Shown one piece after another: positions 90-60,898 of a DNA stretch of 64,000 nt. A program made the translations under genes and the position numbers. The notes beneath the pieces were generated by a model. The model was not told where the DNA came from. It saw nothing but the letters and a program-made list of their open reading frames with translations, and searched no databases. The DNA lies in the IMG/VR virus record IMGVR_UViG_3300038345_000178. One strand, given 5' to 3'. Every line of letters starts with the position of its first letter. Position 1 is the stretch's first letter. The stretch is from an uncultured virus (IMG/VR IMGVR_UViG_3300038345_000178) (Duplodnaviria; Heunggongvirae; Uroviricota; Caudoviricetes).

Positions 90-671
90 ATGGCAACTGA
101 ATCTTTAAAAACAATGAAAGAACAATTAATAAATTGTGTTCAAGGTCAATTAGGAGACATTTCAAAAGTAGATACTCATGAATTAGGTTAGGCAATTGAT
201 ATGATAAAAGATTTAGCAGAAGCTATTTACTATTGTACAATTACAGATTCAATGGAAAATAGTGAAGACTTAAAAAAACAATCTTCAACTAATATAAACT
301 ATTATACAACTCCAATATCTGATATGTATTATGATCCTTGGAGACGCTCAGAATATAAAAAAGGTTATATGTATTACCCCTCAGGAGCGGAAAACGGCAC
401 AACAACCACATCTGGTAATACAATGCATTATACAGAACCATATATGAAAGAAATGACTCGTGACCCGCGTGAAGGAAGAGCTTATATGCGTCGTCGTACT
501 TATATGGAAGGGAAAGAAAAACATAATGATGCTAATTCTCAACTAAGAGAATTAGAAGCTTATTTACAAGAGCTTTCTTCTGATATCACTGAAATGGTAA
601 AAGATGCATCTCCAGAAGAAAGGACCACTCTTCGTCAAAAAATGACAACATTAGCGAGTAAAATTGTTTAA
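90..671 (+). CDS. Hypothetical phage protein with one in-frame TAG (189-191)
   Basis: AAGGAGG RBS, then ATG at 90 in frame with track ORF 201..671; reads ...VDTHELG*AIDMIKDLAEAIYYC. Confidence 0.8.
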
Positions 672-1003
672 TGTTTTTAATTAATAACATTTATTGGAAG
701 CTTTCTTTTGTCCCTTCTAATTTCCCATTACTGCGTAAATTAAATGGGGAATATTCTATTGGAGCTTGTGACAATTTAACAAGAACAATTTATTTGAATA
801 AAAATTTACAAGGCGCCATGTTAAAAAAAGTATTATGTCATGAAATTACTCATGCTGCAATGTTTTCTTATAATGTTGAATTATCAATGCAACAATAGGA
901 GCTTGTTGCTGATTTAATATCTATTTATGGTGAAGAAATCATTTATACCACAAATAAAATTTTTATTCATTTAACATCACTAAAAAACAGGGACTCATTT
1001 TGA
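671..1003 (+). CDS. HExxH zinc-metallopeptidase-like protein, TAG at 896-898
   Basis: LCHEITHA motif; the frame continues past TAG (MQQ*ELVADLISIYG...) to TGA at 1001-1003. Confidence 0.7.
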
Positions 1004-1016
1004 GTCCCTATTTTTT
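989..1016 (+). terminator. Intrinsic terminator
   Basis: AGGGACTCA-ttt-TGAGTCCCT hairpin followed by a T-tract. Confidence 0.75.
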
Positions 1017-1043
1017 CTTGTAAAATACGAAATTACATAAAAT

Positions 1044-1072
1044 TTGACAGGCTCCAAAAATTTTGGTATAAT
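1044..1072 (+). promoter_or_regulatory. SigA/sigma70-type promoter
   Basis: TTGACA-17 nt-TATAAT. Confidence 0.8.
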
Positions 1073-1096
1073 ACTCATAGAAGAGGTGATTATATT

Positions 1097-1582
1097 ATGA
1101 TAGTATTAGCATTAGATTTATCAACTCGATCTTCTGGTTATGCCTTAGGCGTAGAAAACTCATTAGAAAAGCATGGATTTATTTCAGCTTCAAACACCAA
1201 TCCAATAAAACGTATTATAAAAATGCGGGATTAGCTTACTAAAATAATAAAAGCCTACAAAATAAATAAGATAATTATGGAATAGGTTAGACCTGAATAT
1301 AATAGTCATACGATGAAAGTATTAATGTGGTTACAGGCAGCAATAGTAATCGCTGCATATGAAATTGATCCATAGATTTAGTGTGAATTTATTGGCGCAA
1401 GTTCATGGCGGGCTTAGCTAAGAATTAAACAAGGACGCGGCATAAAAAGAAATTAGCTAAAACCGCAAGATATTTAGTATGTTAAAAATAAATATAATAT
1501 TTAGGTGAATGACGATGAAGCAGATGCAATTTGTATATTTGATGCCTATTGGTTAAAACAACAAGATTTTAATTGGAAATAA
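1097..1582 (+). CDS. RuvC-like Holliday junction resolvase (161 aa, 8 in-frame TAGs), absent from the ORF track
   Basis: GAGGTG RBS; MIVLALDLSTRSSGY...IIME*VRP...DDEADAICI (RuvC acidic motifs). TAGs at 1232, 1283, 1373, 1379, 1415, 1454, 1475, 1502; ends TAA. Confidence 0.8.
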
Positions 1583-1616
1583 AAAAACCAACTCTTTTTA
1601 AAGAGTTGGTTTTTTT
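1581..1616. terminator. Bidirectional terminator between convergent genes
   Basis: AAAAAACCAACTCTTT/AAAGAGTTGGTTTTTT inverted repeat with A- and T-tracts. Confidence 0.75.
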
Positions 1617-1695: not shown

Positions 1696-2313
1696 TTAAT
1701 CATTTTCAGAATTATCTTCTAATGCGGCAACCTTACTTTCTAATGTTGAAATTCTTGATTCAATTTCAGTTAAATCCACTGAAGATAAACCTTCATTAAT
1801 ATTACTTAATCTAGTTTCTACACTCTAAATCCAATCTCTAAGAGTTGAAAGCCCATTTGGAAAATTTAATAATGGACCCAATACCTATTGTAAAGTTATA
1901 TTAGTATTGTTCCAAGCAATATTATTTGTTGAAAATCTTTTATTATTAAAACGTTCGCTAAATACCTGTGCAGCTTTTTCTTTTATAGTTGGAATCCCCG
2001 CAATATACGGCTCTATATTAGCTACTGAATTTTCTAAAGCATTTAATCGCTCTGTATGAGATTCTATTAAAGGAACTTGAACATTTAAAATATTTTCATT
2101 TTCATGTAATTGCTATGCAATAGAATTTTCATTTAATTCAAAATTACCTAATATAGTTTTAATATTTCTTTGATTATCATATTCTATATTATTTGCCAAA
2201 GCTCCTATTGGTACAGTTTGCTATATTCCATTCTACTAAACAGTTAGTTCTCTTACAGTATTATAAATATCTATTTTATCAGTATCAACTTTTATAGTAT
2301 CAATTAAACTCAT
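1696..2313 (-). CDS. Hypothetical coiled-coil protein, possibly tail-associated, with several TAGs including a tandem TAG-TAG
   Basis: AGGAGTG RBS; MSLIDTIKVDTDK...ELTV**NGI*QTVPIGALA...heptad-like C-terminus; ends TAA. Confidence 0.65.
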
Positions 2314-2327
2314 AAAATTCACTCCTT

Positions 2328-2689: not shown

Positions 2690-5600
2690 TTAATTTTTAT
2701 TATATTTTAATGCCTTTTGGGTTGCTAAATTAACTAAATTTGAAAAAGCCTATTCTATTTCTTTGTAACTAGTGACACTTGGGAAATTAGCTTCAATTTT
2801 TACTTGTTGTTCTAAAGCCTGCGTTGCCATTTTTTGTTTTTCAAGAATTTTTTGCTAGTATGTTTTTGTTGTATTTGACATTCGCTATTGAATACTATTT
2901 AAATATTGTTTTTGTGAATTTAATGTTGCTAAAACATTATTTTGTACCAACTCAGACATTGTACGAGAAAATTCTAACATTTTTAACATATTCTCAGTAT
3001 CATCTTTATTTAATACTAGCTCTTTTTCATGCAAAACCGCAAGCTTGCCTTGTTTAGAGTTCCATTTACCTGTATATCCGCCAGTATCAAAATAATCAGG
3101 AAATAATTCTTCAATACCTTTAAATGATTTAAACACAGCAGGAACTTTAAAAGGCAACGGTGCTAATAATATTTTTTCTATTGAGTTCCAATTTGCACTG
3201 TACCATTTTTCATAATCATCTTTAGAGAAACCTGGAAATACACGTTGAAAAGCTGTATACATATACATACCACTTGGATTTTTATATGCCTGTCTCTCCT
3301 TTTTTGGAATTTCTTTATCGATAGCCTTATTGACTTCTCGTAAAAAATCTATAATAGACTGAAGTTTATCTGATTGCTCCCTGTCTTTGTTTTCTAGATT
3401 AAGAAGTGTATTTAATGTATATCGTAAAGAATTTCCTCCAATATCAAACATGCTAGTATAATCATTTACTTTATTTAAATTAACTTTTTGTTTTAAAGCA
3501 TTTAAACCAGTTAAAGTTTTTTTATCATTTTTTGCTTGATCAGCATCAAATTTTGCTTGATCAGCATCAAAATCAAATACCCTTCCATTGCTTGTGTATC
3601 CAGGTATATCTCCAGAATACTCTCCTTCATTACCAGGCTCTCCATAATTTTGATATGAATTATTTAATGTAGGATTAGTTGTATTTCCATCTCCATCAGT
3701 AGAATCTTCTGATGGACTGTTCTAAATATTATCTAAATCATTAGACAATTTTAATTCAAGATATTCTTGTGCTTTAGTTAAAGCATCGCTAGTTTGATCA
3801 TAAACGCCTTTCCACCAAGATTCTATATTTTCTAAAGTAGTTTTCCATTCAGTTGCTTTTGTAATAGTTGAATCCATAGAAGAAATTAATGCATCATTAT
3901 TAGTTACCATTGCAGCTTCATTCTATACAACCGGATCAATTGCAGATTTTAAATTACCAAAGTTTAATCCAGCAGTTTCAACAACATTTGCAATTTTTTC
4001 ATCATATTCTGTTGCTTTATCCTACATACTTTGAATAGCTTCATCAAACATATTCATAACACTATCTGGATTAGAATTAAATTTATTAATAAAGTTTTGT
4101 GATTCACTATTCATCCCCTAAATCATATCACTATAATTTATTTCACTATTACCCATTAAATCAACCATGCTATCATAAGTTGATTGTTCTAAATTAGTTC
4201 TAATAGAGTTATTTTCTTGGGCATAAAATGTCATTTTTTCTTGAGCGTCTTTTTGAATTAAAGCAATTCTTTCTTGTTTTTGCTATTCACTTAAGCTATC
4301 ATTTTTCCTAATCTCTGCAATTTGACTCATAACATCTTTAAATACTGCAACTGCGTTTTCATTGTTACTACGCCAAGCCTATAAATCAAAATTATATAAA
4401 TCATTTTGTGCTTTATCTAAATTATTTTGAGCTTGATCAATAGCTTCTTCATCTACAGTAAATTGATATGAATAATTACCAGAAGCATCTCTTTTTAATC
4501 TCATTGTAGTTTTATTATTCCTTGCTTCTTCTAATGCAATTCTTGCTTTTTCAACTTCTAAAACTTTTTCTGCCCTATCTACATCATATTGAGTTAATTT
4601 ATCTTTTTCTTTTAAAATTTGCATTTGCTATTGCATTACTTTTTTCAACGCTTGTTGATTACGTAATTCACTAGTATCACTAATTGCCTTACTAAATAAA
4701 TACTATGTATTTTTAATAGCAAAAGCAGAATTAACTGTATCCAAATACATATCTGCATGACCTTTTAATATATCCCATTCTAATGTTATATAATCAAAAC
4801 CATGTCCGTTTGTTAAAGAGTTTTCCAATTCATTAACAATGGTATCAATCATGTTTTCAAATTGAGATTTTAAATTTTGAATTGCCGATTCAGTTGTAGA
4901 ATTAAGACTTTTTGTTACATTTTCCCAATTTTCATGTGCAATTTTCTTTGCAGCCTCGTCAGTTGCGGCTGCCTCTTGTTCTGCCCAAAATTGTTGCTAT
5001 TGTCTTAACATATCAATTTGATCCAATCCAAAACTATTCATTTGATTATAATAATTATCTTTATATCTACCACCACGAGAACCGTAAATTAAATCCATTA
5101 GAGACACATCATGACTTAATTGCTAACTAATAAAACTATAATAATTATTTTGTTTATCAAATTCTTCTTGAACATAAGAGAAAGCGTCTAAATAAGCTTG
5201 CTTTATAATATCAGCATATTTTGCGGCATCTTCTAAAGCCTGTTCACCTTTATCTTGTAACTCTGTTAATTTAGTATATGCCTAGCTAACACTATTAAAT
5301 AAATTACTTTGATAGGTTTCGCCATTTGCTTCTGCTCTATTAAAATTGTCAATTTCAGTCAGCACTTGATCAATTGAAGAAGTGATTTTTTGAGCATCTT
5401 TCATTCTATCTCCATAGTTTACTTTTGCCTAATTTGCATCTTTTTCTTTGGAGCCCATTGTATCTGGATTTAAAATATCATCTTTATTTAAAACATTCTT
5501 TTTAAATTCTTCCCAATTCTTTTTAGCTTCTGTTAAATCTAATTGAAGAGAAACTTTTAAATCAAATTTTTGAATATTAATTGCAATTTGTTTTCTTAAA

Positions 5601-8600
5601 GTCTATGTTTGTTTATCAATAGTGTCTTCATGCTGATCTAATAATGAATCATAATCGCTTAATGCAGTTTTTAAGTCAGAATACTTATCATTAATATGAT
5701 TATAATCATTTTCAACTTGAGTTAAAGCGGTTTTTAATCCTAAATAATAATCACTTGAAACATCTCCATCAGCATCCGTCCAAGCATTCATAGAATTGAT
5801 GATACTATTTTTCTTTGCGGTTGCCGCATTTACTTGATTTTCATAGAAGGCTAATATATCTAAATAATTAGATATTTCTCCGTTACTTGTAAAAGTAACT
5901 CCATATTTTGAGCTTAATTTTGTTCTAGATTGAACTAAATCTTGTTCCTATAAATTGCTTTTAGTTTTTAGTTTATTTGATTTTGCATTTAATGCTGCAT
6001 TTTGTTGAGTTAAATTATTATATAATTCTACCCCAGTTAATCCCTATTGAGTGGTCTCTAATCTTGATAAAGTTCGATCCATTTTTGCAATTTCACGATT
6101 AATATCATGATATAAATCTCGTTCATCTTCAAGATATTTATTTAATTCTTTGTGATTTTCAATTCTTGCTCTTTCAATTTGGGCTAGTGATTTTTGATTT
6201 TCATAGCTTCTTTGACTTTGTAAATAACTAAAATTTGCAGCTTTAAATAAACTTTCAATTTGATCTTGCGAAATAACTGCATCTACACCAAATACAGTTT
6301 TTAATAAGTATTTTAATGATTCTGCAGTTAAATCTGTAGTATCAATTAAAAAATTACAAGTTTCTATAAAACCCTAGGTATCAATAATTGGAGCGCCAAT
6401 TTCATACTTTTCCCACTTAGATGTTTTTTTCTAAAAATAAGAAAATACAGCATCTATATTTTCAAATCCATGAATATTATTTTCACGATCACCCTATGTA
6501 AATAATTTAATATCTTGAATCTTTATATTTTCTATTATATCCTCTTTTATCGCTTTGATTAAATCATTATAGCTCTATTCAACTCCGTCAATTGCCGCCT
6601 ATTTTAATAATTTAAAATTTTCTTCATTTAAAAAAAATGCTGTTGATAATAATTTTTCTGCATTAATATCTAAATAATCACCATATACATTTTTTAAATC
6701 AGGCAAAAGTTCTAATTTATCTTGATCTGCTCCTTGCTGTAGAATAGTTAACCAATTACTATAACTTTTTATAACCTATTGAATTGCAACATTATATCTT
6801 AAAATATTTTCAGAAACCTATTTTGCAGTATCTCCATTTTCTCTTAAATCAGAAGATAACTACGAAGAACGTAGAGAAATATTTTGTAAATGATTACCAA
6901 GCTCCCCTAAAGTATTAGTATTTATATCTGAATCTACTGGAACGATAGAAGGATATAATATTTTTAGGCTTTCTGAAATTTTTTGCTAAGCGTCTTTTAA
7001 ATTTTGCTCATCATTATCCTTGGAATAAGTATTATATAGCCCCAGTAACTTGTCATACTGGTCACCCCATTCTTCTGAAAAGGTATCTTCGGGCGTTTTT
7101 TTATTTATAAGCTATTCTTCTAATGCGCTAAGCCTTGTTGCATCGTCATCAGGAAGGAAGTCCTTAATAACTTTTAATTCATTAATCATTTGACTGGCAT
7201 TAGTTAAATTTTGTTTGCCTGCTGCTTTATTAATTTGTTGTTGTCCATTCTAATATATCTTTAAAAGAGGCTCAATATCTTCTTTAAAATCGCCTTTTAA
7301 ATACTCTTCAAGCTTAGCCCGTTTAGCTTTAATAAGGAGAAAATTATTATCTAATATATCTGCAATTGTGTTATTTATAGTCGAAAATTTTTCCGATGCC
7401 TCTGTCTTTATAGCTTCTTTTTCCCCTTCTGTAAGAAACTACGAAGATAGTAACTAATCAATTGCGTCTGCGACATTTTGACCTGAAATTAATGTTTTTC
7501 CTTTTCCATTGTCTCTGAAAGCTGATAATATAGCATCTTTAGCCATACCATCTGTCTAACGGGTTCCCCCTCGAATTACTCCTGGGGTATTCTTATAATT
7601 ATAATAATCATCTATATTCCGTTGGCTTTCATCTATATCTGGACCTGTAAAAGATTGCTTTTTGTTTCTTTCTTGAGGTTTTTCATGGCCAGTTTCTGTT
7701 TCTAGCCATGCTTTAATTTTTTCTACTTCTCTCTCTGCGGCCTAATAGCCCTCTTGCCAACTAGAAACCGCTTCAGTATCTAATTTATCAATTACTCTCT
7801 GCTTTGTATTATCGTTTGTTTTAACCTGATATCCTGTTCCCGATTGATATTGAAAATTCGTTTTAAATGCTTCCCACTAATCTGAAGAATGAGTTTTTTC
7901 ATATTCTGTTTTAATTTGTTCCATTTCATCGTCTGAAATAGTAACATTTTCCTTGGTAGAAGCCAATTTTAATGCAAGATTATGCATTGTCATATAATGC
8001 GTTCCTTTGGCTTTTTTACCAGCGTCTGTTAATTCATTAAAACCAGAAAAATCTAATTCACTAGTTTTCTTCATTATTTCATATATTTCTTGAAAAGATA
8101 GTAGCACCGGTGACATATTTAAAGATTTTATATATTGAATTTGAGCTGAATTATATTTCTCTAATAATGAAGTAGCATCATTTATTTGCTATTCATTTAA
8201 ATCTCCAAAGGTCTCTATTAATTGTGCTTTTTCTTGATACAAATTAACTTGATCTGCTGAAACGTTATCTGAAATTGCATTAAAAATTTTATTATCAATT
8301 TCATCTTCATCTAAAAAACCCTTTAATTCAGTTCGCACTTGATTAGAAAATTTTAAATAAGTATCTGTATATTCTTTTAAATTAGAAGCCTCATTTAATT
8401 TTGAAGAATAATTATAATCTTTACTAACAATACTATTATTTGCATAATTTTGATTAATTTCTTCTTGTGTTGCTTCTAATTGTTTTATATCATCTGATAT
8501 TTCACTTAAAAAAGATTGAACATTACTATAAAATTGAGTTGAAGTATCTGCCTAATCACTGTCTATATAATCTTGTAATTTTTGAATTTGATGCAATGCA

Positions 8601-11600
8601 GCTCCACCAGAAGTTGCTTCTCCCAGCATTAAAGCTCTCCCTAAATAATTCCAACTTCCATCTCCTAATATTGTGGCAACTTTATCAACTTCTGAGCTTT
8701 CTCCCCATGCAGCGCCAATAGCACCATTAAGAGCTGTTTTTAACGCTTGCCATGAACGAAGACTTTCTCCTGTCTTAGTGGAATTATATTTTTGTCTTAT
8801 AATATTTTCTTGCTATTTTTTTTCCTTTTCCAAAGATGTTTTTTCATTAGAATAAATTTTTCTTTTTGCATTTAAAGCTGAAGCACCTAAATTTTTATAA
8901 TCTTTAATTAATTCTTTAATCGTATCAGATTCATTTTTATATTGTTCCTGTAATTCTTTAGTTTTATTTTGTAATTCAATAGTTGTAATTTCGCCTTTTT
9001 TATAGGCTTCATTTAATGCTTCAACCTGTTTTACAATGTCTTTCTATTTATTATAAGTCTATTGTTTTTCATTTTCTTTTTCAATCTATTTTTGAGACAT
9101 TTCAATTGATTTTTGTCTTTGTCTAGCCACTATTGCATAACCAGCAGCTGCAGCCGCATAAACAGCACCAACCGCAAGAGTAAGTCCAGCACCCAACTTT
9201 CCTATATGACTAGACATTCCATTCCAAATGCCCTTAATTCCATTAATAATAGATGTAAAACTTTCTTTTATTTTTGTTCCAATATTCTTTAATGTTAATT
9301 TAGTGTTTTCAATTAAAGTTGTATTTTGTTTTTTAATTTCTTTAGTTTCACGTCTTTTTGCATTTGCATTATTATTACTAGCTTTTGCACCAGCTTCTTT
9401 TGCACCCGTATTTGCTCCTTCAATAACCGTATTAGTTCCCTATTGAACATTTTCGAGCTTTTGTAAAGCAATATTTTTTTCTTTAACCGCTTGTTCCTTT
9501 TCTTCTAATACTTTATGCTTAGCTTTTGCTTCAGAAAATTTTCCAAGAGCAGAAGATAACGATGCATATCCAGTAATTAACATTGGAATAGTAATTAATA
9601 AATTACTAATTGTTTGTTCAAACTTTTCCGTTTCTGTTAAATCTTCATTGTCCCAAATATTTCCTATATTAGCAAAATTTTGAATAGTCATATTTAATTG
9701 ACCAAGCGCGCCCGTTAACTGAAGAATACCTTGAATAGTAGCCTGTCTCATACCAGATTTGGCTTCTTCTGCTGCCTATTTAGCTTTTTTTAGAGCCTAT
9801 TTCTATTTCTATAAAGCCTCCATTGCATTTTGCCCTTCGGATTCTAAATTACCCGCTGACTACTTTGCATATTCACCAAGATTATTGAAGAAATCTTTAA
9901 TTTTATTATTTAATTCTTCTAACTCTTCAACTGTGGCACTACCACTATTTCCTATTTCCTACATTAATGCATCGTATTGTTCTGCAAATCCCTTTAATTC
10001 TTCACTTGCGTTCTAATCTCGACCAGCATTAATATATTTCATTAAATCGGCTTTCTGTTCTGTTTCTTCCCCAGTTTCTTTATCTTTTACTCTTACTGTT
10101 TGTTCAAATTGTGATTTAAATTTTTCTATGCGTTTACTTGCTATTGTCTATCCTTTTTCTTCCTAAGCCTTTTTTAATCCTTCCTACGTTTGTGCAATTT
10201 TTTTCTACAACTATATTTTCTTTTTTTCTAAAATTTCTACTTCCTATGCATTTTCTTGTATTAAATTATTTAGTCCTTCAATTTGATTTTGTGTCTTTTG
10301 TTCTAATTCTACTTCTTCATTTAACCACTATGAAATGTCATTTTTAATATCTTCTAACTAACTAAGCCCTTCTTTTAATTGACTTAATTCTTTCTATAAT
10401 CTTGGAGTATTTTCTCCAGTTATTACTTTTCCATTCTCCATGCTTTTATCTGCTTTTATTTCATATTCTTTTTCTGTAATAGCTTCTTTTATATTATATA
10501 TTTTTATTGCATTATCTCTCTTAGCATCTTCTAACTCTTCTTTAGTTATAAGTTTTGAAATTTTTTTACTATTTTCTACTTCATCCTTTGTTTGTTCCCA
10601 GTCCTCAATTTGATCATTTATACTACTTAAATCTTCTTTTAAATTGTTTAATTCCTAAATAGCATTTTCACACTGCTTAGATGCCTATTTAACATTATCT
10701 GTTGCCTATCTTATCTCTGTTTCCTAAATCTATAAAAGATTTTTTGTAGAATCTGCAAGAATTTGTGCAACTGCGTCTTGATCTGTTTTAAACACCTCAT
10801 TAGCAGCTTCTATATTGGTTTGAATACCTTGTAAATTTGATTCATCTACTTCTTTTATACCAGTAAGTTTTTTCAATGGATCAAATTTTTTTTCTTTTTG
10901 TTTTTTAGCAATATCTGCCTAAATTCCCGCATTAGTAGACTAATCCCATAATTGATTTATTTTACTAATACTCTAGTTTGAAAAATATTGCATATTTGGT
11001 AGAAAACGTGCTTTATCTCGCAACGTTTTTGCTTCAGCAGAATCGCCTTTGCCCTGAGCCTCTAAAACAGCTATTTTATCCTAAATATCTATTTGCGCTT
11101 GTTTTAAAGAAGCTTTTTGTTCTTTGTTTTGAATCCTATTATTTATAAAAGTATTTATACCAGATGCCATTGTTTTACTCATCAATTGAGTGGCAATAGC
11201 CCCAATAGAATTTAAAACCGCTTTTCCGCCACCAATAGATTGAAATAATTGATCTACTTTATTAATTACTTTTGTTAAATCATCTATAACGCCCTTAAAA
11301 CCATCAGTATTAATTAAATTCATCCACATTTTTTCAGTTGCGGCAGTCATCTGATTAATTTTAGTATTAATATCTTCCATATAAGCTTTATTTTGTTTAT
11401 TTAATGTGCCTTCTGCCCCTTGAGCCGTCTTTAATGCACTAATATATTTATCCTGATAATTATCAAATAAAGCAATAAGATTTGTGTACTGTCTTTGACC
11501 TGCCATAGTTTGAGCAATATAAGTTTGCTGTTCTTTAGAAAAAGTTCCCCATTTTGAACCAATTTCTTCCATAACCTAACCCATATTACGCAATTTTCCT

Positions 11601-12874: not shown

Positions 12875-13708
12875 ATGGATAAAATATATATAACAGCAGA
12901 CCCGCATGGTAATTACTTGCATTTAAGAAATATTCTTACAAATTCAAATATATCAATTATTAATTCTACAATGATTATATTAGGTGATTTTGGAGCCAAT
13001 TTTTATTTGGACAAAAGAGATGAAAAATTTAAATCGAAATTGGAAAATTTTGCTTCTACTTATAATATTAACTATTTTATAATTAGGGGCAATCACGAGC
13101 AACGTCCAAGTCTAATATACACACAATATCCAAATTTATGGTCAACTGAAAAATTTTGGAATGGTATAATAATGTATGAAAACAAATTTCCACATATAAA
13201 ATATGCAACAGACTATCCTTCTATTTATGAAATTCCAGTTGAAAACAAAATCTTTCAAACACTTGTATTGCCTGGTGCATATTCTGTTGATAAATATTAT
13301 AGATTATCAAATCATTGGAGCTGGTTTTCAGAAGAACAGTGTAATACAAAAGAACAAGAAATTGCATTAAAAATTATTGAAAACCAAAAAGATTGGAATT
13401 TAATATTATCTCATACCTGCCCAATATCATATGAACCTACTGATTTATTTCTTCCAATAATCGATCAAACAACAGTAGATAAAACAACTGAGCGGTGGCT
13501 GCAAAAAATTCAAAATAACATAAACTATGATTTATGGGCATGGGGACATTTTCATGAAAATCGTATTTATCCAATTCAAGAAAATAAAAATCATATTATG
13601 CTTTATAATGATTGTGTATTTGACTTAACTGCATTTTATAATAATATCCCTATCGAACAATGTTTTATTAAAACATTTGAAACAGCTAAAATAAATAATC
13701 TTAATTGA
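12875..13708 (+). CDS. Calcineurin-like metallophosphoesterase
   Basis: DPHG, GDFG, RGNHE, SHT and GHFH motifs. Confidence 0.85.
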   Translation: MDKIYITADPHGNYLHLRNILTNSNISIINSTMIILGDFGANFYLDKRDEKFKSKLENFASTYNINYFIIRGNHEQRPSLIYTQYPNLWSTEKFWNGIIMYENKFPHIKYATDYPSIYEIPVENKIFQTLVLPGAYSVDKYYRLSNHWSWFSEEQCNTKEQEIALKIIENQKDWNLILSHTCPISYEPTDLFLPIIDQTTVDKTTERWLQKIQNNINYDLWAWGHFHENRIYPIQENKNHIMLYNDCVFDLTAFYNNIPIEQCFIKTFETAKINNLN

Positions 13709-51671: not shown

Positions 51672-53429
51672 TCAATTTTGTTTAGCTCTAATAGCAGCGT
51701 ATTGTTGTGCAATTTTATGTAAATGAAGTGTAGCATTAATTACTGCAGCATTAATATCATTAAATACAACTCTAGCTCTATACCAAGCTGCACCTATATC
51801 TTTTCTTTTTAATGCTGCCGAACCTCTAACCCGTTTCTTAGAGTTTCCCTAATACCACTGATTCAAAAACATCCAATTTTCATTTATTTTTATTTTTGTT
51901 TGTCCCACATTTTGGCGGCTTGTTAACTTTTTAGTTTTTTTAAGATTTCTCTATAAATAAAAATTTACATATTGTGTAAATAGGTCTTTTGTAAATTTAT
52001 CATCTTTAATAAATTTAAATAGCTCCCATATAGAAATTAGTTCCCCATTTGCTAAAATATGCGTAGAAAAATCAATTTTTCGTCCTTTATTAGAATCACT
52101 TCCAGTAGAAAACAATCGAAACAGTTGTCTTTGCATCATTATTCTTGCAAAAGACTAAGATAATCCAACAAAAGTAAGATAGTTATAAATATTATACCTT
52201 GTTTTCTAATCATAATTCATTGCATCAAAAAATTCTAATAAAGAGCCTCCGCTACCACTATTAACATCTATAGCTCCACCCTTCAAACCCTTCAATGTCC
52301 ATGCTTGCGTTTTTAAAAACTTAACAGATGCTTGTAACGATACAGATAGTTCATATTCCTTATCTTCTATCTTTAATGTAATATATTTTCCTGGAATGGT
52401 TATATCAGTTTTAAAAGTATTTTTATTATTCGGGTAATGTTTATTCTAAGTTTGTGTCTTTCCTGAAAAAACATAATTAAGCGCAGTATTAACCTAATTA
52501 AGTCCATTATTAATTAAAGCATCTCTTTTTATTGCAGTTATCTATCCCATTTCTGTACTAAAAAGATCTTGTTGTAAAGTTTGTGATATTGAATTTGTTA
52601 ATTTAAATGCATCATTAATACCAGTTTTCGAGGTATCTCGTACAAAATCATGAACTTTAGTCATAATTGTTTTAAAATATTCTAATCCTTGTTTATATTC
52701 AGAGTCTGTTACAACAGAACCATCAGAAGAATTTAATTGTTTTAAGAAATTTTCTAACAACTCTTTGGATGTACTCTTACCTTTGTCCTTTGCATTTTTT
52801 AAGGCATCGTTTAAAAAAGTTGAAAAAGCAATATTACCGCTACCCTTTTCCATTTCTTCAACAATATTAATTATAGGTTGAATAAATTTATTCTATAAAT
52901 TTTCTACAGAATCTCTTATTGTAGGAATAACTGTTTCTGCAACCTTATTTAATGGGCCCAAGTCTTCTCGATATATTCTATGTGCTTCTTTCCGATCAAA
53001 ATTCAAAGCATCTAATAATGCCATTCCAAAAGCTTCATTTAATGAATCTAACAATTGCTAACTACCCTATTGGGTTACAAGACTAAGTGCTGCAGCATCT
53101 TCTGGTGAAAGCTTAGATAATGAAAACTTAGATAATAATGCATTTTTATAATCATTTTGAGCTAAAGATGCGGCTGTTCCTTCTTCATCATTTAAAAATT
53201 CCACTCCATTAAATGGAGTTTCATTTCCTTGTAATCCAGATTGATTATAATGCTATTGTAAAAAATGAATATAAATAAGATTTCCCATAGCAGTGTTTCT
53301 TGCCCCAGAAGCAAATTTTCCTAGCATACCAGCATTTGGACTACCCCAACCGCTATTTTTAAATTTTGCAATTCCGACTTTTCCAGCTCCTCCAAAGTTA
53401 ATTCCACCAGAGCTCCTTTTTAATGACAC
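51672..53429 (-). CDS. Hypothetical ~585-aa protein with multiple TAGs
   Basis: GAGGTG RBS, GTG 53429. Track fragments 52542..52853 and 51951..52139 are in this frame and end in TAG; the gene ends at TGA. Confidence 0.7.
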
Positions 53430-53498: not shown

Positions 53499-55334
53499 TT
53501 AATCACGGTACTCTACTGGAGTTGAATCATTCTTAGACTCTTCAATTATTCCCGCAGGATGCCCAAAAACAGTTTTTGGTGGTTTCTCTACACTGTCTAC
53601 GTCATCTACAATTTGAATTGCACAAAGCACTTTTTTACTCTTATCAAAATAAGTGTAACCAGGCATAGCGTCCATAGTAAATGAAAATGTACTTGGATCT
53701 CCTGTTGGAGCCATTGAGAATGTAAAGTTTGATTGAATTTTTACATTTGGGAATGTAATATTTGCAGGCAAGTCTTTGCCATCGCTTTGACGTCTAAATA
53801 AAGTATCTGCTTCTACATAATAATATCCAGCAAAATTCTCAGCATCAATTTGAAGCTCAGAAATTGTAGCTGCTTTCTTGGTTACATAATAATCAAGAAC
53901 AACTGCTTGTCCAGCTGTATCTCCAATTGCTAAGAAGTTTTGATATGCTAAAGCTTTATTTTCATATGCAACCCTACCTAATCCGCCAGGACCTCTATAA
54001 AGTGTACCAGTTGCGCCAGCAATTGCAGCCTCTGTTTCAAGCTCAATTGGCTGTCCATCTCTAAATACATAATATTTTGGACCACTAGCGTTTGCAGATG
54101 GTTTAAATACAGCTTTTATTACATCTGGCATAACACTATAAGCGCTATTTAAAATATATTGAGCATAGTATTTATAGTTATAATAACGCAATGCTGCTTG
54201 AATTGTTAAAAATTCTATAATTGTGGCTAAAGCCGCAGTTTTTGCTGATGCCTCAGCATTTTCATCAATAAAAGTGTTATATGCATTGCTTGCTGCGATA
54301 ACTTCTGACCTCATAGTTGCAGTAGTTTTTTGTACTTTAGCTTTATTTGCAAGTACGCTACTTGGAGAAAGAGAAGCCTCTGTAACAGTAAAGGCAGTTG
54401 GGAAAGAAGACGCATCTTCTTGAGTAAAATCAACTTTAAATTTTGTAAAGTTATAAGGAAGAACTAATGCAGAACCATCAACCGCATCTATAAAAGAGTC
54501 TCTTGGCTAATTAAAATACAAAACATTACTTGTACCAAATAAATTTACTAATTGCTGTCTAAAAGCAGAAGTTGTATCAGTATAAAAACCATAGCCAGCA
54601 TCGTCCCTTGTTAAAGATGCTACTGGCATTGGCTCTGCATAAGACCAGTCTAATGGGTTTTCAGAACTAGTAGAAGTTGCTAAAACAGCTACTTCATTCC
54701 ATGCTTTAAAACGTTTCTTTGCCTCAATATTAGATTCTCCTGCCTTCTTTTTTTCGGGGAAGGGCACTGTAGCAATTTCTGACATACCAACCCCACTAGT
54801 AATAGAAGAAGCAGAAACTCCTTTTAATACAAGTTTTTGATTATTAGTAGGATCAATAATATAATTACCCTGAACAATGTCTCCTGTTAGATCGCCATAT
54901 TTATCTGTTTTTAAAATAAAGAATGGGGCATTTATATCAATAGTTTCATTTTCTTCTAATGCATTTGTTAAATCCAACGAGCCATCTTCTGCAGAAGCTA
55001 CAAGAGCAGTTGTTTGATGGAAATGCATAAGCTTTTCTGAATCCGCTTTTGATTTAATAAGTCCGGCACCAGATAACATAGCAAAACTAATTGGTGATAA
55101 TAAAGCATCTTCAACAGTAAAAGTTAAAGTCTTTTCACCTTCCCAAGCAATTAAACGAGTATTTCCACGTCCGCCTTGTGCATACACTGTCGTAGCTGAA
55201 CCTTCCATACTTGAAGTTTTTGCTGTATCAATATAAAGAACCGGTTGCCCCTTTGTTACTTTAATATCACCGAAATACTGAGTTTGAGTTGCTCTAAAAA
55301 CAACATTACATATTTCACGAACACCAAATTTCAT
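53499..55334 (-). CDS. Major tail (tube) protein, 611 aa, single TAG at 54507-54509
   Basis: MKFGVREICNVVF...YAQGGRGN and C-terminal KIQSNFTFSMAPTGDPSTFSFTMD. The two track ORFs share a frame with no TAA/TGA between them. Confidence 0.75.
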
Positions 55335-56104
55335 ATTAAGGTTTCCTCCTTGTTAAAATTATTATTCTATGAGTGGATGTCTTTTAACCAATCTTCTGGA
55401 TCTTTTAAACCAGTTGCCCCGGCAATTTTTAGTTGTAACCATTGTTCATTTGCCTTATATAACATAAATCGATTAAATTCATCCATTAATTGATAAATTG
55501 TATAATCCATAATTTCATTTATACTTTTATTTTTTGCAGCCGCAATGATAGATATATATCTACTAAAAAAAGAAACCTTATCTTGTTTAGGCCCCAGCTA
55601 TGCCTTTTTCTTTTGTCCTCTTTTTATTTGATCTGCAATTTTTTTAGCTAAAGCTCCACTTGGATCATACTATTTATTTTCTTGATTTAAACAAAACATA
55701 TCTTTCAATATTTTTAAAAAAATATCAAAATTATTATTATTAATTTCTCCATTCTCATTAGTTTTTTCATTTATTAACATAATTTTTCCATCAGATAAAA
55801 TAATTTTACTTGTAGGAAATAAAATGCTAAATAAAGATAAAACATTATTTTTTGTTTTTTGAGATTCTACACTTTTCTTTTCTGTTAACAAAGCAAAAAT
55901 TAATTGAAAATTAGAATAATTAGCTAATGATTCGGCCTCTGATACACTTAGGGCATCTTTATCAAATTTTAAAGTTTCATAAGCAATCCAAAAAGTTTTT
56001 TCAGTAATATATGCAATTTCTTTTAGGGAGGGCTGATGAATTATAACCTAACCCTATAAAAAAGGAATATCATTTCCAGATATCAATAATAATTCATCAA
56101 CCAT
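55331..56104 (-). CDS. Hypothetical morphogenesis-region protein with TAGs
   Basis: MVDELLLISGNDIPF...HQPSLKEIAYI...YTIYQLMDEFNRF...WLKDIHS*. Read-through ends at a TGA overlapping the next ATG. Confidence 0.7.
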
Positions 56105-56768
56105 TGTTTGTATTATTATCCTCATTCTAATCTTTGATAGAAGAAATTTCATTCCAGCCCTAATCTGTTTTTTCAATCCAACCATGTCTACTAGGTAATA
56201 AATCATCTGTTCCATGAATTGCATTAAAAATTAAACTATAACCAGTTAAATTTTCATCTAATATTAATTCTACACAGCTTTGAAATTGAAAAGTTCCAAT
56301 TCCAGAAAGCTTAGTATTATTTAAAATAGCATCAATATAACCACAAATTTTTAATGGACGTATTTTAAAACCGCCTAAATCCCATTGATCACTATTACAT
56401 ATAATATCAATTACAAGTACACAATCTCGGAACTGTGGATTAGTAGCATTTGGGAAAAAATTATCAAAAGAAAACATTAAGTAAGTTTTTACTTTTTCAT
56501 GTTCTTGCATTTGGATTTTTGGTTCCCATCTAATATAACCCTATTCTTTTAATTTTGACAATGTCATATCTTTTATAAGCTTATTATATAAAAGACTATT
56601 TGAATCTTCTAAAGCATCTTTTGTATTTATTACTAATAACTTTTTTAATTCAGTGCTATAAGGCTCACTCTAAAGAAATAATTTTCTTAAAATTTTTTCT
56701 AAATCATTTTCGCATGACAAAAAAGATGAAGTAAAATCTAATGGTTTCATAATTAAATCTTTTCTCAT
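56097..56768 (-). CDS. Putative tail completion/terminator protein with TAGs
   Basis: AGGAG RBS; MRKDL...SSFLSCENDLEKILRKLFL*SEPYS...KLSGIGTFQF. Function inferred from position. Confidence 0.65.
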
Positions 56769-56793
56769 ATGTTTTGCCTCTCCTTTTATATCC

Positions 56794-57780
56794 TTATAAA
56801 GAAACAATCTTAATATTTAAAATAATATCATCTTGTTCCTAAATCCTATATATTAATGTAGCCTGACCTTGCTACTTTGATGGATTTTCTAATATTAATG
56901 TATCAGATGAACAATCTAAATCAATCTAGGTTCCAAACCAATTTAAATACCATTTCCCACCTGTTGCATTTTTTATAGTATAATTATTAACACTATAAGT
57001 TTGAATTTTATTTGGTCCATCAATATATGCAGCAGTTTCATCTACAGGATTTTCATTATTTTGTTCTGCAGTTTCTAATTTCTTTACAGTCTATTCTATT
57101 TCATTTTCAAAATATTCTTCTGCAACAATCTAAATAATACCATCTCCATAATAAGGATTAACACTTGTTACCTGCCAAGTTTTTTCTTTATTATCTCTTG
57201 GATCTTTAATTTTTATTTTTGCGAATCTTGAAAAAAATTGATTAGTATTTTCATCTGCAGTAATAAAAATTACCAAAGAATAATTCAATTTATTCCAATC
57301 AATATTGGCTTTTTGCTTCCAAATAATATCTGTTTCAATAGGCCCTCTTACATATATCCAGTAAGGGGTCCCATTTATAAATACCTAAGAATCACAGCGT
57401 CTTATCTCAGCACGAAAATAAGCTTTTTCATTTAAATTTTGTAAAAATACTAACCAATGTGTATTAGTTTCTTTCCAAGTAAAAACGTCTCCAGGTTTCA
57501 TATCAATTAATTCAATTCCCTATGACGTTTTTCCAATTTTTCGTTTATTTAAACATATATCTTTAAATAAAATTGAAATAATTTTATTATCATACTAAGG
57601 TTTATTTTTATCAGGGTTTATTAAACATCTAAACTCTCTTCCATCAGATAAAATTGCGGTGTTAGATTGATATGAATATAATAAAGCTTTTCTTAATGAG
57701 CGTCTTTTATCTTCATACATTCTTTCTATCTGGTTCCCGCCCTAATATTGTAATCGTTTATTTAATAATTCTAACGACAT
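56794..57780 (-). CDS. Putative head-closure/neck protein with TAGs; absent from the track
   Basis: AGGAG RBS; MSLELLNKRLQY*GG...FRCLINPDK...AYFRAEIRRC...GII*IVAEEYF; 987 nt ending TAA. Confidence 0.65.
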
Positions 57781-58091
57781 AATTCTCCTTTTAATACATT
57801 CATTAAATTTAAACAATCAAAAATCGTTCTTCTATAAATAGAAAAATCTTCTTTTTTTATTAATGAATGTAATCCTTCCAATTTATTTAATAATGCAAAA
57901 TAAGTTTCTGAATCACCGCAATTCAATAATTTTTGCATCCCTACTAACTATTCTATAATAGTCTATAAGGGTTTCTCCCAGTCCGATTCTTCCTATCGGA
58001 CTGGAAGTAACTTATAAATTTGATTTATTAAACTTTGGAATCGTTGAGCAATAATATTAGAATTTATCTATATGTTATATTTTAAAATCAT
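57762..58091 (-). CDS. Hypothetical neck-region protein with 5 TAGs; absent from the track
   Basis: MILKYNI*INS...NQIYKLLPVR*EESDWEKPL*TIIE*LVGM...YRRTIFDCLNL. Confidence 0.7.
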
Positions 58092-58115
58092 TGTCAACTT
58101 CCTTTGCTATTAAAA

Positions 58116-59723
58116 TTAAACATTTCCCTTAGTAACACTTACATTTGTTGCACTTGTCAATACTGTTACAGAATCTTTATTATTCCAAGCTGTATTTGCA
58201 CCAGAAGCAACAGCCTTAATATATTTATCTGTAGTATTTAATGTAAATGTTGTAGCTTCTCCCAATGTATTATCTGTAACAGGAGTAATGCTAGTAATAG
58301 CTTTAACCGTTTTTTGATTGTTCCAGGCTGTATTTGCACCAGAAGCGGCTGCAGATAAATATTTAAGATTTGAGCTAGCACCCACAACAACTTGAGCATT
58401 TCCACTATCGCTAATAGAATTTGTAGTTATCGCGCTAAACGATGTACCTGCACCTAATACACTGTCTGTTGTAGGATCACCTAATGCAGTTAAAGCAGAA
58501 CCATCTGTAGTAGAGACAGATGCTACAAAAGGTCCAACAGTGCTTGAACTTGATGTTGTAGTAATTCCTGTTAAAACAGTTGTAGCAGAAGAAGCAGCTA
58601 CTGGTACTGTTACATCTGAGAATGTGTGCTGAGTCGTAGTCTGAGTATTTAAAGTTGCTGCGCCAAAAGTCAAAATACCATTACTAACAGAAACACCTTT
58701 TAAAATATCTGAATTTGAAGAAGAATTTGTTACAGATCCAGTTGCAGTAGTTTGAGAAGTACCTGCAGTAGCTTTAGACGCAGTTGTTGAAGAAGATACT
58801 CCCGTGATAGATGTTTTTGTAAAATACTTTGAAGTTGGAGTAACAGTTTTAATAAAATCATCAGAACTAGGACTATATCCAGTTACTGCATCTACTAGGT
58901 CATTGGATCCAGAAGTAACCGAAGTTGAAGAGGTTAAATACTTTTTAGTAGTTGTAATATCTTCTGCATATTTTATTCTACCAGTTGCTGTCTATCCGTT
59001 TGCTGTTAATCCAATAGTAGGTTGTGTAATTGTGAAAGTTGCGTCTTTACCAACAACATCTGTTGTAGTTGGAGTTAAACCAGTAACGGCCGCGACGATA
59101 TCATTTGTTCCTACTGTAATGGGATTAGTTGAATTAGGCTCAGTTACTTTTACTCTTCCTGTTGCCGAACTAGACTCAGTAGATAAAGCAACTGTCGGCT
59201 GAGTAATTGTAAATGTAGCATCTGTTCCAACAACTGTATCTGTTTGCTTCGTTAAAGAAGCATTTACAACTATATCATTTAAATTAAGTTGAGTGTCGCC
59301 AATTTTTTCCCAAGAATATGTTGCTGGATCAGTTCCAGTTTGAATACGCACATATTCATCATATATATCAATAGAATTATTAGTAGCCGCCAAGTCTGGA
59401 GAGGTGACAGATTTTACTAAATAAAAAGCTCCAGGCTGCGCGGATGCCGCAGTTAAAGTACCAATATATTCTGTTGTAGTATCACTTCCAGAAGTAGTAT
59501 AATATACTTTAACCCCCGCAGGAATATTAGCAACAGTTGGAGTTACTGTCCCATCCCAAGCAATTATAAAAGTAACACCGCCTGAAACAATTCCACTTAA
59601 AGCATCAAAAGCATTTCTTAATTCACGGTCAGCCACATAATACTCACCCTAACCTGTTAATGCATTATAACTTGGTAATCTTACTTTATCAATAACGGGT
59701 GTATTTATATCTGTATAAGACAT
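58116..59723 (-). CDS. Thr/Ser-rich repetitive virion protein (fibre/decoration-like), TAGs at 59649 and 58992
   Basis: GGGGG RBS; track ORFs 58992..59636 and 58116..58673 share a frame; YDEY...WEKIGDT motif; internal repeats DATFTITQPT x2 and ASGANTAWNN x2. Confidence 0.7.
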
Positions 59724-59738
59724 TCACATATTCCCCCC

Positions 59739-60254
59739 TTAATTTCGATTAAAAATTAAAATATTATCAATAACGCCAGAGGTATCATTAATGTTAATTT
59801 TATTGCTCCAAAAGGTCTTCTCTTCTAAAGAAGTGTGAATTGCTGTATTTTGAATGTGGTTTTCAAACAACTCTTTATTTACATCTTCAATAAAAGGTAA
59901 ATTAAAAATAAAAGTTTTCCCATCTCCAACTTTCATTCTAGCTGATATTAATGCATCCTCTTCGATATTTTTTTTTACATATATATAAATTTGTCCTTTT
60001 TGAGATTTTACAAAAGACTAAGCAATCCATTCATCCTAAGTTTTTATTATAACTTTTGCATAATCATTCAAATCAGACGCCATAGCAAAAAAGGAAAGGT
60101 CATGCCAATGAGTGTTACCATCTCCAATTTTACATTTACCTATATCTAATGCAACTCCCATTTCACCTGCTGATAAAATTGGGTTTACATTTTCCCATTC
60201 TGCTAAAGCTCCTCGCCTTAATAATATACGCATTTTTTTATATTGTATTGCCAT
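59739..60254 (-). CDS. Protein with two Mtd-N/hyaluronidase-N-like repeats (KIGDG, KVGDG), 2 TAGs
   Basis: LLRRG...W...NPILSAGEMG...KIGDG; KT*DEW...KGQIYIY...MKVGDG. Two track ORFs in one frame. Confidence 0.7.
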
Positions 60255-60268
60255 ATACTAACCCCCTC

Positions 60269-60898
60269 TTAATCTCCAAAAGGGGTTCCGCCATCAAAAA
60301 TAATTTCTAAATCCTAAAAAATAGAATTTTTGACAGACTTCTTCCTATTTTCATTAATTTTTATAGTTGAATCTCGTAATATTCCAAAAGTAGATCTCAT
60401 AATACCATTTTCATCTTTAAATCTTCGTTTATATAATCTTTGAAGATGAAAGCCTTCTCGTTCATAATCTTTTTTTAATTGTAAAATCTTATGCATATGA
60501 TTTGCCTGAGAAGTAAACTTAAAATCAGATCCACTATATTTCATACGAGTATTTTCTATACTTGCCAATTGTTGACTTAGCCATTCTACAATCATATATA
60601 CAGCAAGAATATTTATCTCTTCATGAGTAAGTATAATATTAAAGCATCCATTCTCATAAAGAATTGCTTCTGCGTCTACATAATTACTTTCAATTCCATT
60701 ATAAATATGAACATCAGAAACTTCAAAAAGTTCATAATCAGTTAAATCAACTCGTGGAAATTCAAATTTCTCAATTGCAGAAAGTAATAATTGTTCTAAC
60801 ATCCTAAATGTATCAAGCTAATTTAATTCAAGATACATATCATCTGTAATTTTTGATAGAAAGGAGTCATATACAGTAGCAAATAAAGTCGTGCCCAT
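60269..60898 (-). CDS. Putative head-tail connector (adaptor), TAGs at 60818 and 60314
   Basis: MGTTLFATVYDSFLSKITDDMYLELN*LDT...EEINILA...YSGSDFKFTSQANH. Function inferred from position. Confidence 0.7.

Follow-up and report, generated by a model that had tools for sequence, protein, structure and literature searches.

The window analysed here, a 64-kb stretch out of a ~140-kb low-GC phage from the rumen/gut of cattle and goat, raises the question of which amino acid is inserted at TAG: 160 in-frame TAG codons are spread over 52 long ORFs between positions 90 and 60898, a load far beyond chance. When TAG is read as sense, the ORF cover of the window rises from 71.6% (code 11) to 94.9%, compared with 73.8% for TGA and 85.4% for TAA read in the same way, and every ORF in the window terminates in TAA or TGA, so that both are still stops. 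As in recoded phages, conserved genes become whole once TAG is read through, and a tape-measure ORF of 3340 aa appears. The nearest relative retains TAG at 81 of the 129 aligned sites, and independent goat, cattle, and RNA-library contigs keep the TAGs, with none of the 40 listed differences falling inside a TAG codon. A sequence-only reading had proposed that these codons specify Glu rather than the Gln of known recoded phages; nine of the TAG contexts that it quoted, with coordinates recomputed from the ORF starts (189, 1283, 16971, 26745, 27083, 29130, 33028, 39084, and 50156), are all in-frame TAGs, and its codon tally for the RuvC-like gene (eight TAG, seven GAA, and no GAG, with one CAG) was reproduced.

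In the window, TAG is enriched in late and virion genes and scarce in early and replication genes, with a density of 1.7–5 per 100 codons in the tail and assembly genes. On the minus strand, the 3340-aa tape-measure/minor-tail gene (2690..12712; Pfam PhageMin_Tail, 7.8e-27) contains 71 in-frame TAGs, a virion-module gene of 585 aa (51672..53429) contains 11, four further virion-module genes (55331..58097) contain 5, 4, 9, and 5, respectively, and a gene of unknown function (1696..2322) contains six. No TAG is present in the genes for gyrase, ligase, helicase, polymerase, and capsid, much as in other recoded phages, where most replication genes and the capsid genes lack it. A plus-strand block (12875..25431) encoding phosphoesterases, RNA ligase, kinase, RNase H, gyrase B and A, and NAD ligase is free of TAG except for one at codon 75 of the GH25 + CHAP endolysin gene (16749..18350, plus strand) and one in a 97-aa ORF. 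The head genes at 60924..63958 (minus strand) are also TAG-free and include that of the major capsid protein (61589–62641), which shares 54% identity with the Phass-1 protein and 35% with its counterpart in Enterococcus phage EF1. TAG-rich exceptions to this bias are the RuvC-like resolvase gene (1097..1582), the RecJ-like (DHH/DHHA1) gene (33366..35138, eight TAGs), and the homing endonucleases; the GIY-YIG endonuclease genes, on the plus strand like the two preceding genes, are located at 25953..26852 (nine TAGs) and, between two DNA polymerase III alpha pieces, at 38883..39563 (four TAGs).

Since the protein database already puts Q at TAG, the amino acid was sought by comparing DNA codons, using a Codetta-like log-odds score on the aligned codons of relatives. 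Against 105 related loci, the 1640 codons aligned with the window TAGs comprised GAA (445), TAG (193), GAT (141), AAA (125), CAA (110), and GAG (66), which yielded scores of +38.6 for E and –30.0 for Q over 111 sites; after whole relatives were added, the scores were +46.2 and –39.0 over 85 sites. All 61 sense codons were assigned correctly in both comparisons, E ranked first in all 2000 bootstraps, whether sites or the 22 genes were resampled, and D and K were ~100 nats under E. The best single assignment in the window is Glu, not Gln. Among 88 informative sites, E scored above Q at 56, Q above E at 15, and the two tied at 17, the plurality residue being E at 43 sites, D at 10, K at 8, and Q at 8; as references, true GAG codons gave E at 107 of 155 sites and true CAG codons Q at 60 of 98. 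The secondary residues at TAG (Asp, Lys, and Gln) show the pattern of true Glu codons. By gene, E was above Q in the tape-measure gene (+0.8 vs –13.7 at 30 informative TAG sites) and in the RecJ-like gene (+0.4 vs –3.0), and the gene at 55334–56224 was the sole one with Q (+3.9) above E (–0.1); the 585-aa gene has one or two aligned relatives per site, and the gene at 1696..2322, with a single aligned relative, is uninformative on the amino acid. The nearest relative alone gave a thin signal (GAA 11 and GAG 4 vs CAA 4 and CAG 4), and EF1 alone left the window undecided (E5, K5, and D4 of 37).

The same assignment was obtained for the clade. In each of six complete relatives, E scored best, and it was also the top residue in all six when they were compared with EF1, a standard-code phage, alone (23–36 of 62–114 sites). 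When Phass-1 and its close kin were put through the same pipeline, the scores were +24.0 for Q and –33.2 for E (Q above E at 19 sites, E above Q at 3), showing that the method is not biased to Glu; the alignment of TAG with Gln that characterises code 15 was found for Phass-1 and not for the window. Among 42 related loci examined by this method, 26 gave E, 15 gave Q, and one gave a weak L.

Most of the Glu-like contexts cited in the sequence-only reading were borne out by the codons of relatives. At these and other TAG sites, Glu is found in 46 of 47 relatives at TAG 189..191 and in 35 of 35 at TAG 896..898 (both plus strand), in 69 of 71 at 1283 in the RuvC-like gene, and in 18/18, 14/14, 10/11, and 10/14 at 57993, 57948, 56926, and 56670, respectively; the corresponding numbers are 13/16 at 2750, 7/8 at 33028, 6/8 at 26745, 3/3 at 27083, and 12/20 at 39129, with E10 D6 N4 W4 K1 at 39084 and E2 T1 at 16971 in the endolysin. 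Three of the contexts did not stand: GII*IV (57130) is aligned with Q in 12 of 14 relatives, and RNMG*VMEE (11576; T3 E3 S1 D1 A1) and PQLIL*DYE (35097; Q1 E1 A1 K1) are mixed. LQY*GG (57742), which had been called ambiguous, has Q in 9 of 15 relatives. Moreover, relatives have Gln in 19 of 21 cases at TAG 5948..5950 (minus strand), counting against a pure Glu reading, and in 13 of 19 at 4997; together with 57130 and 57742, these make four sites that are strongly Gln. Overall, TAG very probably stands mainly for Glu in this phage.

The CUA-anticodon tRNA predicted in the sequence-only reading was found once in each of the six complete relatives and not within the 64-kb window. ARAGORN labels the tRNA as tRNA-Pyl, a call that follows the anticodon only and was rejected; an ordinary tRNA model fits end to end with 54.6–65.2 bits. 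According to PMC9976931, the set recognised by GatCAB in bacterial tRNA-Gln consists of U1-A72, G73, G2-C71, G3-C70, and G10, with roles in amidation for U1-A72, G1-C72, and U20a, and the E. coli tRNA-Glu set consists of U11-A24, U13-G22:A46, the lack of residue 47, G1-C72, U2-A71, and U34, U35, C36, and A37. In the Rfam register, the clade tRNA(CUA)s have G.U, G-C, or C-G at 1-72, A at position 73 (U in L200), C-G or U-A at 3-70 (G-C in L200), and G10, and hence do not carry the tRNA-Gln set. These genes have a U just before position 1 that could pair with A73; were this U the mature 5' end, the top pair would be U-A. Of the tRNA-Glu set, all six have U11-A24, U35, and A37 and none has U2-A71; C44, G004, L200, and L204 show the 4-nt variable loop, U13.G22 is found only in G004, and G1-C72 only in L204, while C34 and A36 replace the E. 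coli GluRS determinants U34/C36. The D-arm of the nearest relative's tRNA is shared with a tRNA-Glu of phage EF1. With the anticodon masked, scoring on Glu and Gln profiles gave 41.0 vs 7.0 bits for the nearest relative, 32–34 vs 24–27.5 for four others, and 15.2 vs 11.1 for G004, and a leave-one-out check of the profiles placed 11/11 Glu and 6/7 Gln tRNAs correctly. The profiles thus favour a Glu-type over a Gln-type tRNA in all six, by a strong margin in the nearest relative and a modest one in the others; for the commoner clade type, the margin is only 6–9 bits, and by plain identity it is equally close to a Gln and a Glu tRNA.

It is possible to account for the Gln-like sites by a mixture of Glu and Gln at TAG, arising for example from partial amidation of Glu-tRNA(CUA) or from two suppressor tRNAs. 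Consistent with such a mixture, relatives are at least 80% Q at 2 of the 53 TAG sites with at least 10 aligned codons, compared with 2 of 591 true Glu-codon sites; Q is above E at 17% of TAG sites, compared with 6% of GAG and 4% of GAA sites; the E score per site is low (~0.5 nat vs ~1.6 at true GAG); and U1-A72 could be imitated by a U(–1)-A73 pair, should it form. A simpler cause of the excess is that one C-to-T transition turns CAG into TAG, and therefore, under the Glu reading, a site that once encoded Gln changes to TAG more readily than to GAA or GAG; the low score per site indicates that TAG sits at variable positions. With a single tRNA(CUA) per complete relative, and with D and K, the usual neighbours of Glu, level with Q as secondary residues, we consider a mixture unlikely. 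Still less probable is glutamine throughout (the usual code 15), in which the Glu-aligned sites would be Glu-to-Gln replacements. It has precedent in published recoded phages including Phass-1, which are read in this way in PMC10607447 and 10.1101/2021.08.26.457843, and it would suit the 15 of 88 sites with Q above E, the four strongly Gln sites, and the Q found opposite TAG 35097 in a solved RecJ. Against it, Q is under E by 85 nats in the window and by 178–465 nats in the six relatives, and 10 of the 53 TAG sites lie at positions with at least 80% Glu, where none of the 332 true Gln-codon sites falls. In addition, the commonest partner codon, GAA, is two mutations from TAG, the pipeline is able to give Q (Phass-1 and 14 other loci), and the clade tRNA(CUA)s are without U1-A72 and G73. 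A different assignment (Asp, Lys, or a non-standard amino acid), or readthrough without fixed meaning, which the plurality of D and K at some sites and the anticodon-based 'Pyl' call might suggest, is scarcely credible in view of the deficit of D and K, the fit of the tRNA to the ordinary model and its Glu-type profile score, and the dominance of GAA/GAG, which requires a Glu-like residue.

The full explanation, namely that TAG is a sense codon for Glu by means of a phage tRNA(CUA), is probable as a whole, and the candidate host offers a putative route for charging. In the bin that contains the nearest relative (G001), one GluRS-family gene, GatB, and two class-I release factors were found, and no GlnRS was found in this sole candidate host genome, whose only link to the phage is the relative's contig in that bin; GluRS, GatB, and class-I release factors were not found in the phage records. 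In the indirect Gln-tRNA pathway, as described in PMC9976931, a single GluRS charges the tRNAs for Glu and for Gln alike, those destined for amidation being marked by U1-A72, much as the G001 gene set would allow, although there it is host housekeeping and its recruitment by a phage tRNA(CUA) to set the meaning of TAG is our extension. The G001 gene set is in line with the suggestion of the sequence-only reading that a non-discriminating GluRS loads the tRNA and no amidation follows. A Glu-type tRNA(CUA), encoded outside the window and lacking the tRNA-Gln features U1-A72 and G73, would be loaded with Glu by the host's single non-discriminating GluRS; without U1-A72 it would be no substrate of the GatCAB amidotransferase and would remain Glu-tRNA, competing with release factor 1 at TAG. 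We regard this route of GluRS loading without GatCAB amidation as somewhat better than an even proposition.

UAG is known to encode Glu in peritrich ciliates (NCBI table 30) and Blastocrithidia (table 31), via a tRNA-Glu-type suppressor. These codes share UAG = Glu with the phage but are nuclear, apply to the whole organism, and reassign UAA too, whereas the phage keeps TAA and TGA as stops and is a virus inside a standard-code cell. Laboratory amber suppressors made of an E. coli tRNA-Glu body with a CUA anticodon are alike in this combination, but in E. coli GlnRS tends to mischarge them with Gln, which a GlnRS-less host would avoid. Among phages, the Borges preprint (10.1101/2021.08.26.457843) gives TAG-to-Gln and TGA-to-Trp as the only changes observed where the code is unlike the host's, and no report of phage TAG-to-Glu was found in the literature searched, in agreement with the sequence-only reading, which had called the code undescribed. 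The code 15 phages (Phass-1 group, PMC10607447; crAss-like, Lak, and others, 10.1101/2021.08.26.457843 and PMC9523058) have the same in-frame TAGs in conserved genes, virion/late enrichment, tRNA(CUA) within a phage tRNA array, no aminoacyl-tRNA synthetase or release factor of their own, and a standard-code host; there TAG is Gln, whereas in the window clade it is aligned with Glu.

The tRNA(CUA)s of the Gln-reading relatives have U1-A72, U1.C72, or A1-U72, and two kinds bear an extra Gln-like arm with a CUCUGA loop; the tRNA(CUA)s of the window's clade are without U1-A72, G73, and the arm. It may be, at somewhat less than even chance, that sister lineages differ on TAG, Glu in the ruminant clade of the window and Gln in the human-gut Phass-1 clade, with the phage tRNA(CUA) as the switch. 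A U1-A72-type top pair, mostly together with an arm copying the Gln anticodon loop, would direct the tRNA into the Glu-then-amidate route to Gln, and with a top pair of another type it would stay Glu-tRNA. Such related Glu-type and Gln-type suppressors would form a natural pair for probing how GluRS, GatCAB, and GlnRS decide codon meaning, and natural starting material for genetic-code engineering.

If the Glu reading is true, the phage would provide the first natural case of TAG = Glu outside eukaryotes, and a virus capturing a stop codon could choose among amino acids. Phage recoding is treated as two cases, TAG to Gln and TGA to Trp, and Q at TAG is built into gene-calling programs and databases; code 15 annotation would then put the wrong residue in thousands of database proteins, at ~1–5% of late-gene positions for a Glu-reading clade. 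The database protein for the RuvC of the window has Q written at all eight TAGs.

Treating TAG as a sense codon raises the ORF cover of the window from 71.6% under code 11 to 94.9%, as compared with 73.8% when TGA and 85.4% when TAA is made sense. The in-frame TAGs number 160 across 52 long ORFs, with the tape-measure gene alone accounting for 71, and on recomputation the TAG coordinates, sequence contexts and RuvC codon counts (8 TAG, 7 GAA, 0 GAG) of the sequence-only reading all proved correct, confirming its observation of in-frame TAGs. The nearest sequence is C44, a contig of 139,570 bp in genome bin G001 (nucleotide identity, 74–89%), which retains TAG at 81 of 129 aligned sites; of the 79 single-letter changes in independent contigs from goat and cattle and in two sets of RNA-library contigs, the 40 that were listed all lie outside TAG codons. 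Being kept in C44 and untouched by the listed differences in independent contigs, the TAGs are genuine DNA. Metagenomes from cattle and goat guts contain near-identical DNA (20 of the 24 listed runs, 15 studies), six of those runs being RNA libraries. The G+C content of the window is 29–32%. Its capsid protein shares 54% identity with the counterpart in Phage Phass-1, described in its report (PMC10607447) as a TAG-recoded human-gut phage of 136 kb, and 35% with those of cultured Enterococcus phages that use the standard code, such as EF1. In the guanylate-kinase gene, the sole TAG lies five codons ahead of the TAA (42825–42842), so that suppression would hardly alter where the protein ends.

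Protein databases are of little use for assigning the residue at TAG. The collection copy of the window's RuvC (P0001) has Q written at 8/8 TAG positions, and so have 24/24 RuvC homologues of at least 85% identity. With Q already written for TAG in the collection's translations of these phages, Q columns are uninformative; the protein-level homologue tally was dropped as circular, and only DNA was used. If TAG does encode glutamate, the public protein entries for these phages are wrong wherever Q stands for TAG. An alignment of RecJ to PDB entries was also set aside, its columns being too few and too distant, with the TAG-derived X opposite H, L, P, and Q. The window ORFs were translated with X at TAG and aligned by tblastn to related phage DNA, and the subject codon beneath each query codon was read from the best HSP per subject; since X scores equally against all residues, the alignment is unbiased toward E or Q. 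Log-odds were then summed over sites for every amino acid, separately for each type of query codon, with the odds taken from the relatives' residues (pseudocount, 2; subject TAG and stop codons ignored). The scoring is in principle that of Codetta, except that relatives stand in for the Pfam profiles. Relatives of Phass-1 were drawn from IMG/VR, as the GenBank phage collection contained none.

Among the 168 TAGs in ORFs of at least 80 aa, one or more aligned sense codons were available for 130, and three or more for 88. Against 105 loci, the aligned codons at TAG (n = 1640) were led by GAA (445), followed by TAG (193), GAT (141), AAA (125), CAA (110), and GAG (66). Two mutations separate TAG from GAA, and the only stop-free, residue-preserving path between them passes via GAG and exists only if TAG is glutamate. 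The summed scores over 111 sites were +38.6 for E, −30.0 for Q, and −53.0 for D, and became +46.2 for E and −39.0 for Q over 85 sites when six whole relatives were added; in both runs, 61/61 sense codons were correctly inferred. This Codetta-type check thus places E best with Q negative, and E came out best in 2000/2000 bootstrap replicates whether sites or the 22 contributing genes were resampled (E-minus-Q score: median, 84; 95% range, 36–131). At the level of single sites, E exceeded Q at 56 of the 88 TAG sites and Q exceeded E at 15, with 17 ties; the plurality residue was E at 43, D at 10, K and Q at 8 each, A, T, and R at 4 each, S at 3, and F, P, L, and Y at one each. The corresponding values were 134, 10, and 11 for the GAG control (155 sites; plurality E at 107), and 9, 82, and 7 for the CAG control (98 sites; plurality Q at 60). 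At conserved positions (10 or more relatives, of which at least 80% share one residue), the 53 TAG sites fell on E in 10 cases and on D and Q in two each, while true Gln codons occupied an E position in 0/332 cases and true Glu codons a Q position in 2/591. The proposal of the sequence-only reading that TAG encodes glutamate is therefore well supported by comparison at the DNA level, and the window phage very probably reads TAG as Glu.

The same procedure gave E for each of the six complete relatives, with all sense codons inferred correctly: C44 (E +91, Q −87), G002 (+236, −230), G003 (+185, −179), G004 (+224, −156), G005 (+233, −172), and G006 (+150, −120). Against EF1 alone, E was the top residue in all six (24/88, 36/114, 28/86, 30/91, 27/110, and 23/62 sites), and the window itself had no clear top residue (E5, K5, and D4 among 37 sites). 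Phass-1 served as the control: Q was best in the EF1 comparison, and with its own close relatives the scores were +24.0 for Q and −33.2 for E (Q over E at 19 sites, E over Q at 3). The result for Phass-1 is thus Gln, in agreement with the assignment in its report (PMC10607447), and the pipeline is able to detect Gln. When every fetched locus was run separately, 42 had at least 10 informative TAG sites (60 loci were below that), of which 26 gave E, 15 gave Q, and one gave a weak L over 10 sites. The 26 E-giving loci are those closest to the window, and the 15 Q-giving loci comprise five with RuvC identities of 44–47% and ten that are Phass-like; the meaning of TAG therefore splits along the phage tree.

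Several observations nevertheless stand against a pure Glu assignment. Conservation is lower at TAG than at true Glu sites (~0.5 versus ~1.6 nats per site), four TAG sites (5948, 4997, 57130, and 57742) are strongly Gln in relatives, one gene scores in favour of Q, and comparison with C44 alone places 15 E-codons and 8 Q-codons at TAG. Such a mixture might be expected if TAG were decoded partly as Glu and partly as Gln. The Gln-like sites, however, have a simpler cause: CAG becomes TAG by a single transition, and under TAG as Glu a former Gln site would reach TAG more easily than GAA or GAG. We consider partial dual decoding quite improbable.

A search for the decoder found no tRNA genes within the 64-kb window, and ARAGORN predicted in all six complete relatives a tRNA array containing one tRNA(CUA) each. 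These fall into two unlike types. Type A, that of C44, has G1·U72, G2–C71, C3–G70, A73, and a variable loop of 4 nt in the Rfam register; its D-arm is identical, letter by letter, to that of tRNA-Glu(UUC) of phage EF1, and it has five acceptor pairs and A73 in common with C44's own tRNA-Glu. Variants of type A keep the D-arm and loop with an altered acceptor stem (G1·U72 in locus L200, G1–C72 in L204). Type B, found in G002–G006 and locus L202, has C1–G72, G2·U71, C3–G70 (U3–A70 in L202), and A73. Every tRNA-Glu gene in the phage set has A73, and the parsed tRNA-Gln genes have G73 with U1 or A1. Plain pairwise identity did not separate Glu from Gln for the commoner type (63–66% versus 62–64%), and profiles made from 11 tRNA-Glu and 7 tRNA-Gln sequences with masked anticodons were used instead (leave-one-out classification correct for 11/11 and 6/7, respectively). 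The Glu and Gln profiles scored 41.0 and 7.0 bits for type A of C44, 32.4–34.2 and 24.2–27.5 bits for type B of G002, G003, G005, and G006, and 15.2 and 11.1 bits for the tRNA(CUA) of G004, as against 10.6 and 15.6 bits and 17.1 and 18.2 bits for the first and second scored copies of Phass-1. BLAST with the C44 tRNA(CUA) against the five other complete relatives yielded one weak match only; as the two types differ, it was replaced by the ARAGORN scan.

The Gln-reading relatives have tRNA(CUA)s of other kinds. The copies of Phass-1 have U1·C72/G2–C71/G3–C70/G73, U1–A72/G73, and A1–U72/G73. In three Gln-reading records (G007, G008, and G010), a 99-nt tRNA(CUA) with U1–A72, G2–C71, and G3–C70 (L224:316–414 in G007; the same in the other two) adjoins tRNA-Gln(CUG) and tRNA-Gln(UUG), and the loop of its extra arm, CUCUGAC, is a copy of the Gln CUG anticodon loop. 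A similar loop, CUCUGAA, caps an extra hairpin in one of the copies from Phass-1 (62442–62532); the extra-arm tRNA(CUA)s of Gln-reading relatives are 91–99 nt long. Exact-pattern tRNA scans of IMG/VR returned only 1 and 6 loci, a fixed-spacing pattern had no match in the Gln-clade records, and variable-gap patterns found Phass-like tRNAs, with other matches at control level; the long Gln-clade tRNA(CUA) was found only by ARAGORN on fetched flanks.

Three further tRNA-like features were noted. In G006, a TAG-as-Glu relative, ARAGORN predicts a tRNA whose anticodon, UUA, would read TAA and whose D-arm resembles the Glu type (G006:C1:90222–90296, within L182). A weak tRNA-model match of 40.8 bits without an ARAGORN call lies ~140 nt downstream of the C44 tRNA(CUA) (G001:C44:105203–105271; L032:5203–5271). 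Two tRNA-model matches in G005, far from the main array, occupy C1:31207–31391 (within L172), and ARAGORN calls one of them with a four-base anticodon (aaag).

As to charging, bin G001 contains one GluRS-family gene, and therefore no GlnRS, together with GatB and two class-I release factors; none of these genes was found in G002, G004–G006, or contig C44. As described in one study (PMC9976931), cells without GlnRS make Gln-tRNA through a non-discriminating GluRS followed by amidation, and the amidotransferase relies on U1–A72 and is repelled by G1–C72 and U20a. From this gene content and the U1–A72 rule, we infer a mechanism in which the host GluRS would glutamylate the phage tRNA(CUA) and its top pair would settle the final charge, Glu or Gln. 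We regard this as plausible and lean slightly toward it. Binning points to G001 as the putative phage host; the host of the cultured relatives is Enterococcus.

Stop-codon recoding in phages is itself known, and TAG as Glu is a new form of it. For phages with a code unlike that of the host, the Borges preprint (10.1101/2021.08.26.457843) reports only TAG to Gln and TGA to Trp. The relevant passage of the Lak paper notes some TAGs opposite E and concludes Q, the Phass-1 report (PMC10607447) assumes Gln, and a 2026 jumbo-phage survey applied code 15, the residue not being tested by its authors. Among the matches listed, with supplements and subscription journals outside the scope, there was no relevant report of phage TAG or UAG as glutamate, and wording for TAG or UAG read as glutamate, or for a codon reassigned or recoded to it, occurred in one paper, on Candida.

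One side of the window encodes the 3340-aa tape-measure protein, the RuvC-like resolvase, and virion genes, and the other gyrase B and A, NAD ligase, DnaB, a RecJ-like nuclease, a GH25/CHAP lysin, a split DNA polymerase III alpha, and a split NrdD with NrdG. The polymerase occupies two ORFs (37273–42286), the first with the PHP and the start of the NTPase domain and the second with the remainder, and the GIY-YIG homing-endonuclease gene between them, which has 4 TAGs, points to a split gene or an intron. NrdD, the anaerobic ribonucleotide reductase, likewise comes in two pieces (42914–46347), with a LAGLIDADG endonuclease ORF (43800–44840) in between. Between nrdD and nrdG lies a TAG-free gene (46653–47879) for a Major Facilitator Superfamily transporter of 408 aa. 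In the endolysin (16749–18350), two long poly-threonine linkers of ~20 and 6 Thr separate the GH25, CHAP, and C-terminal parts.
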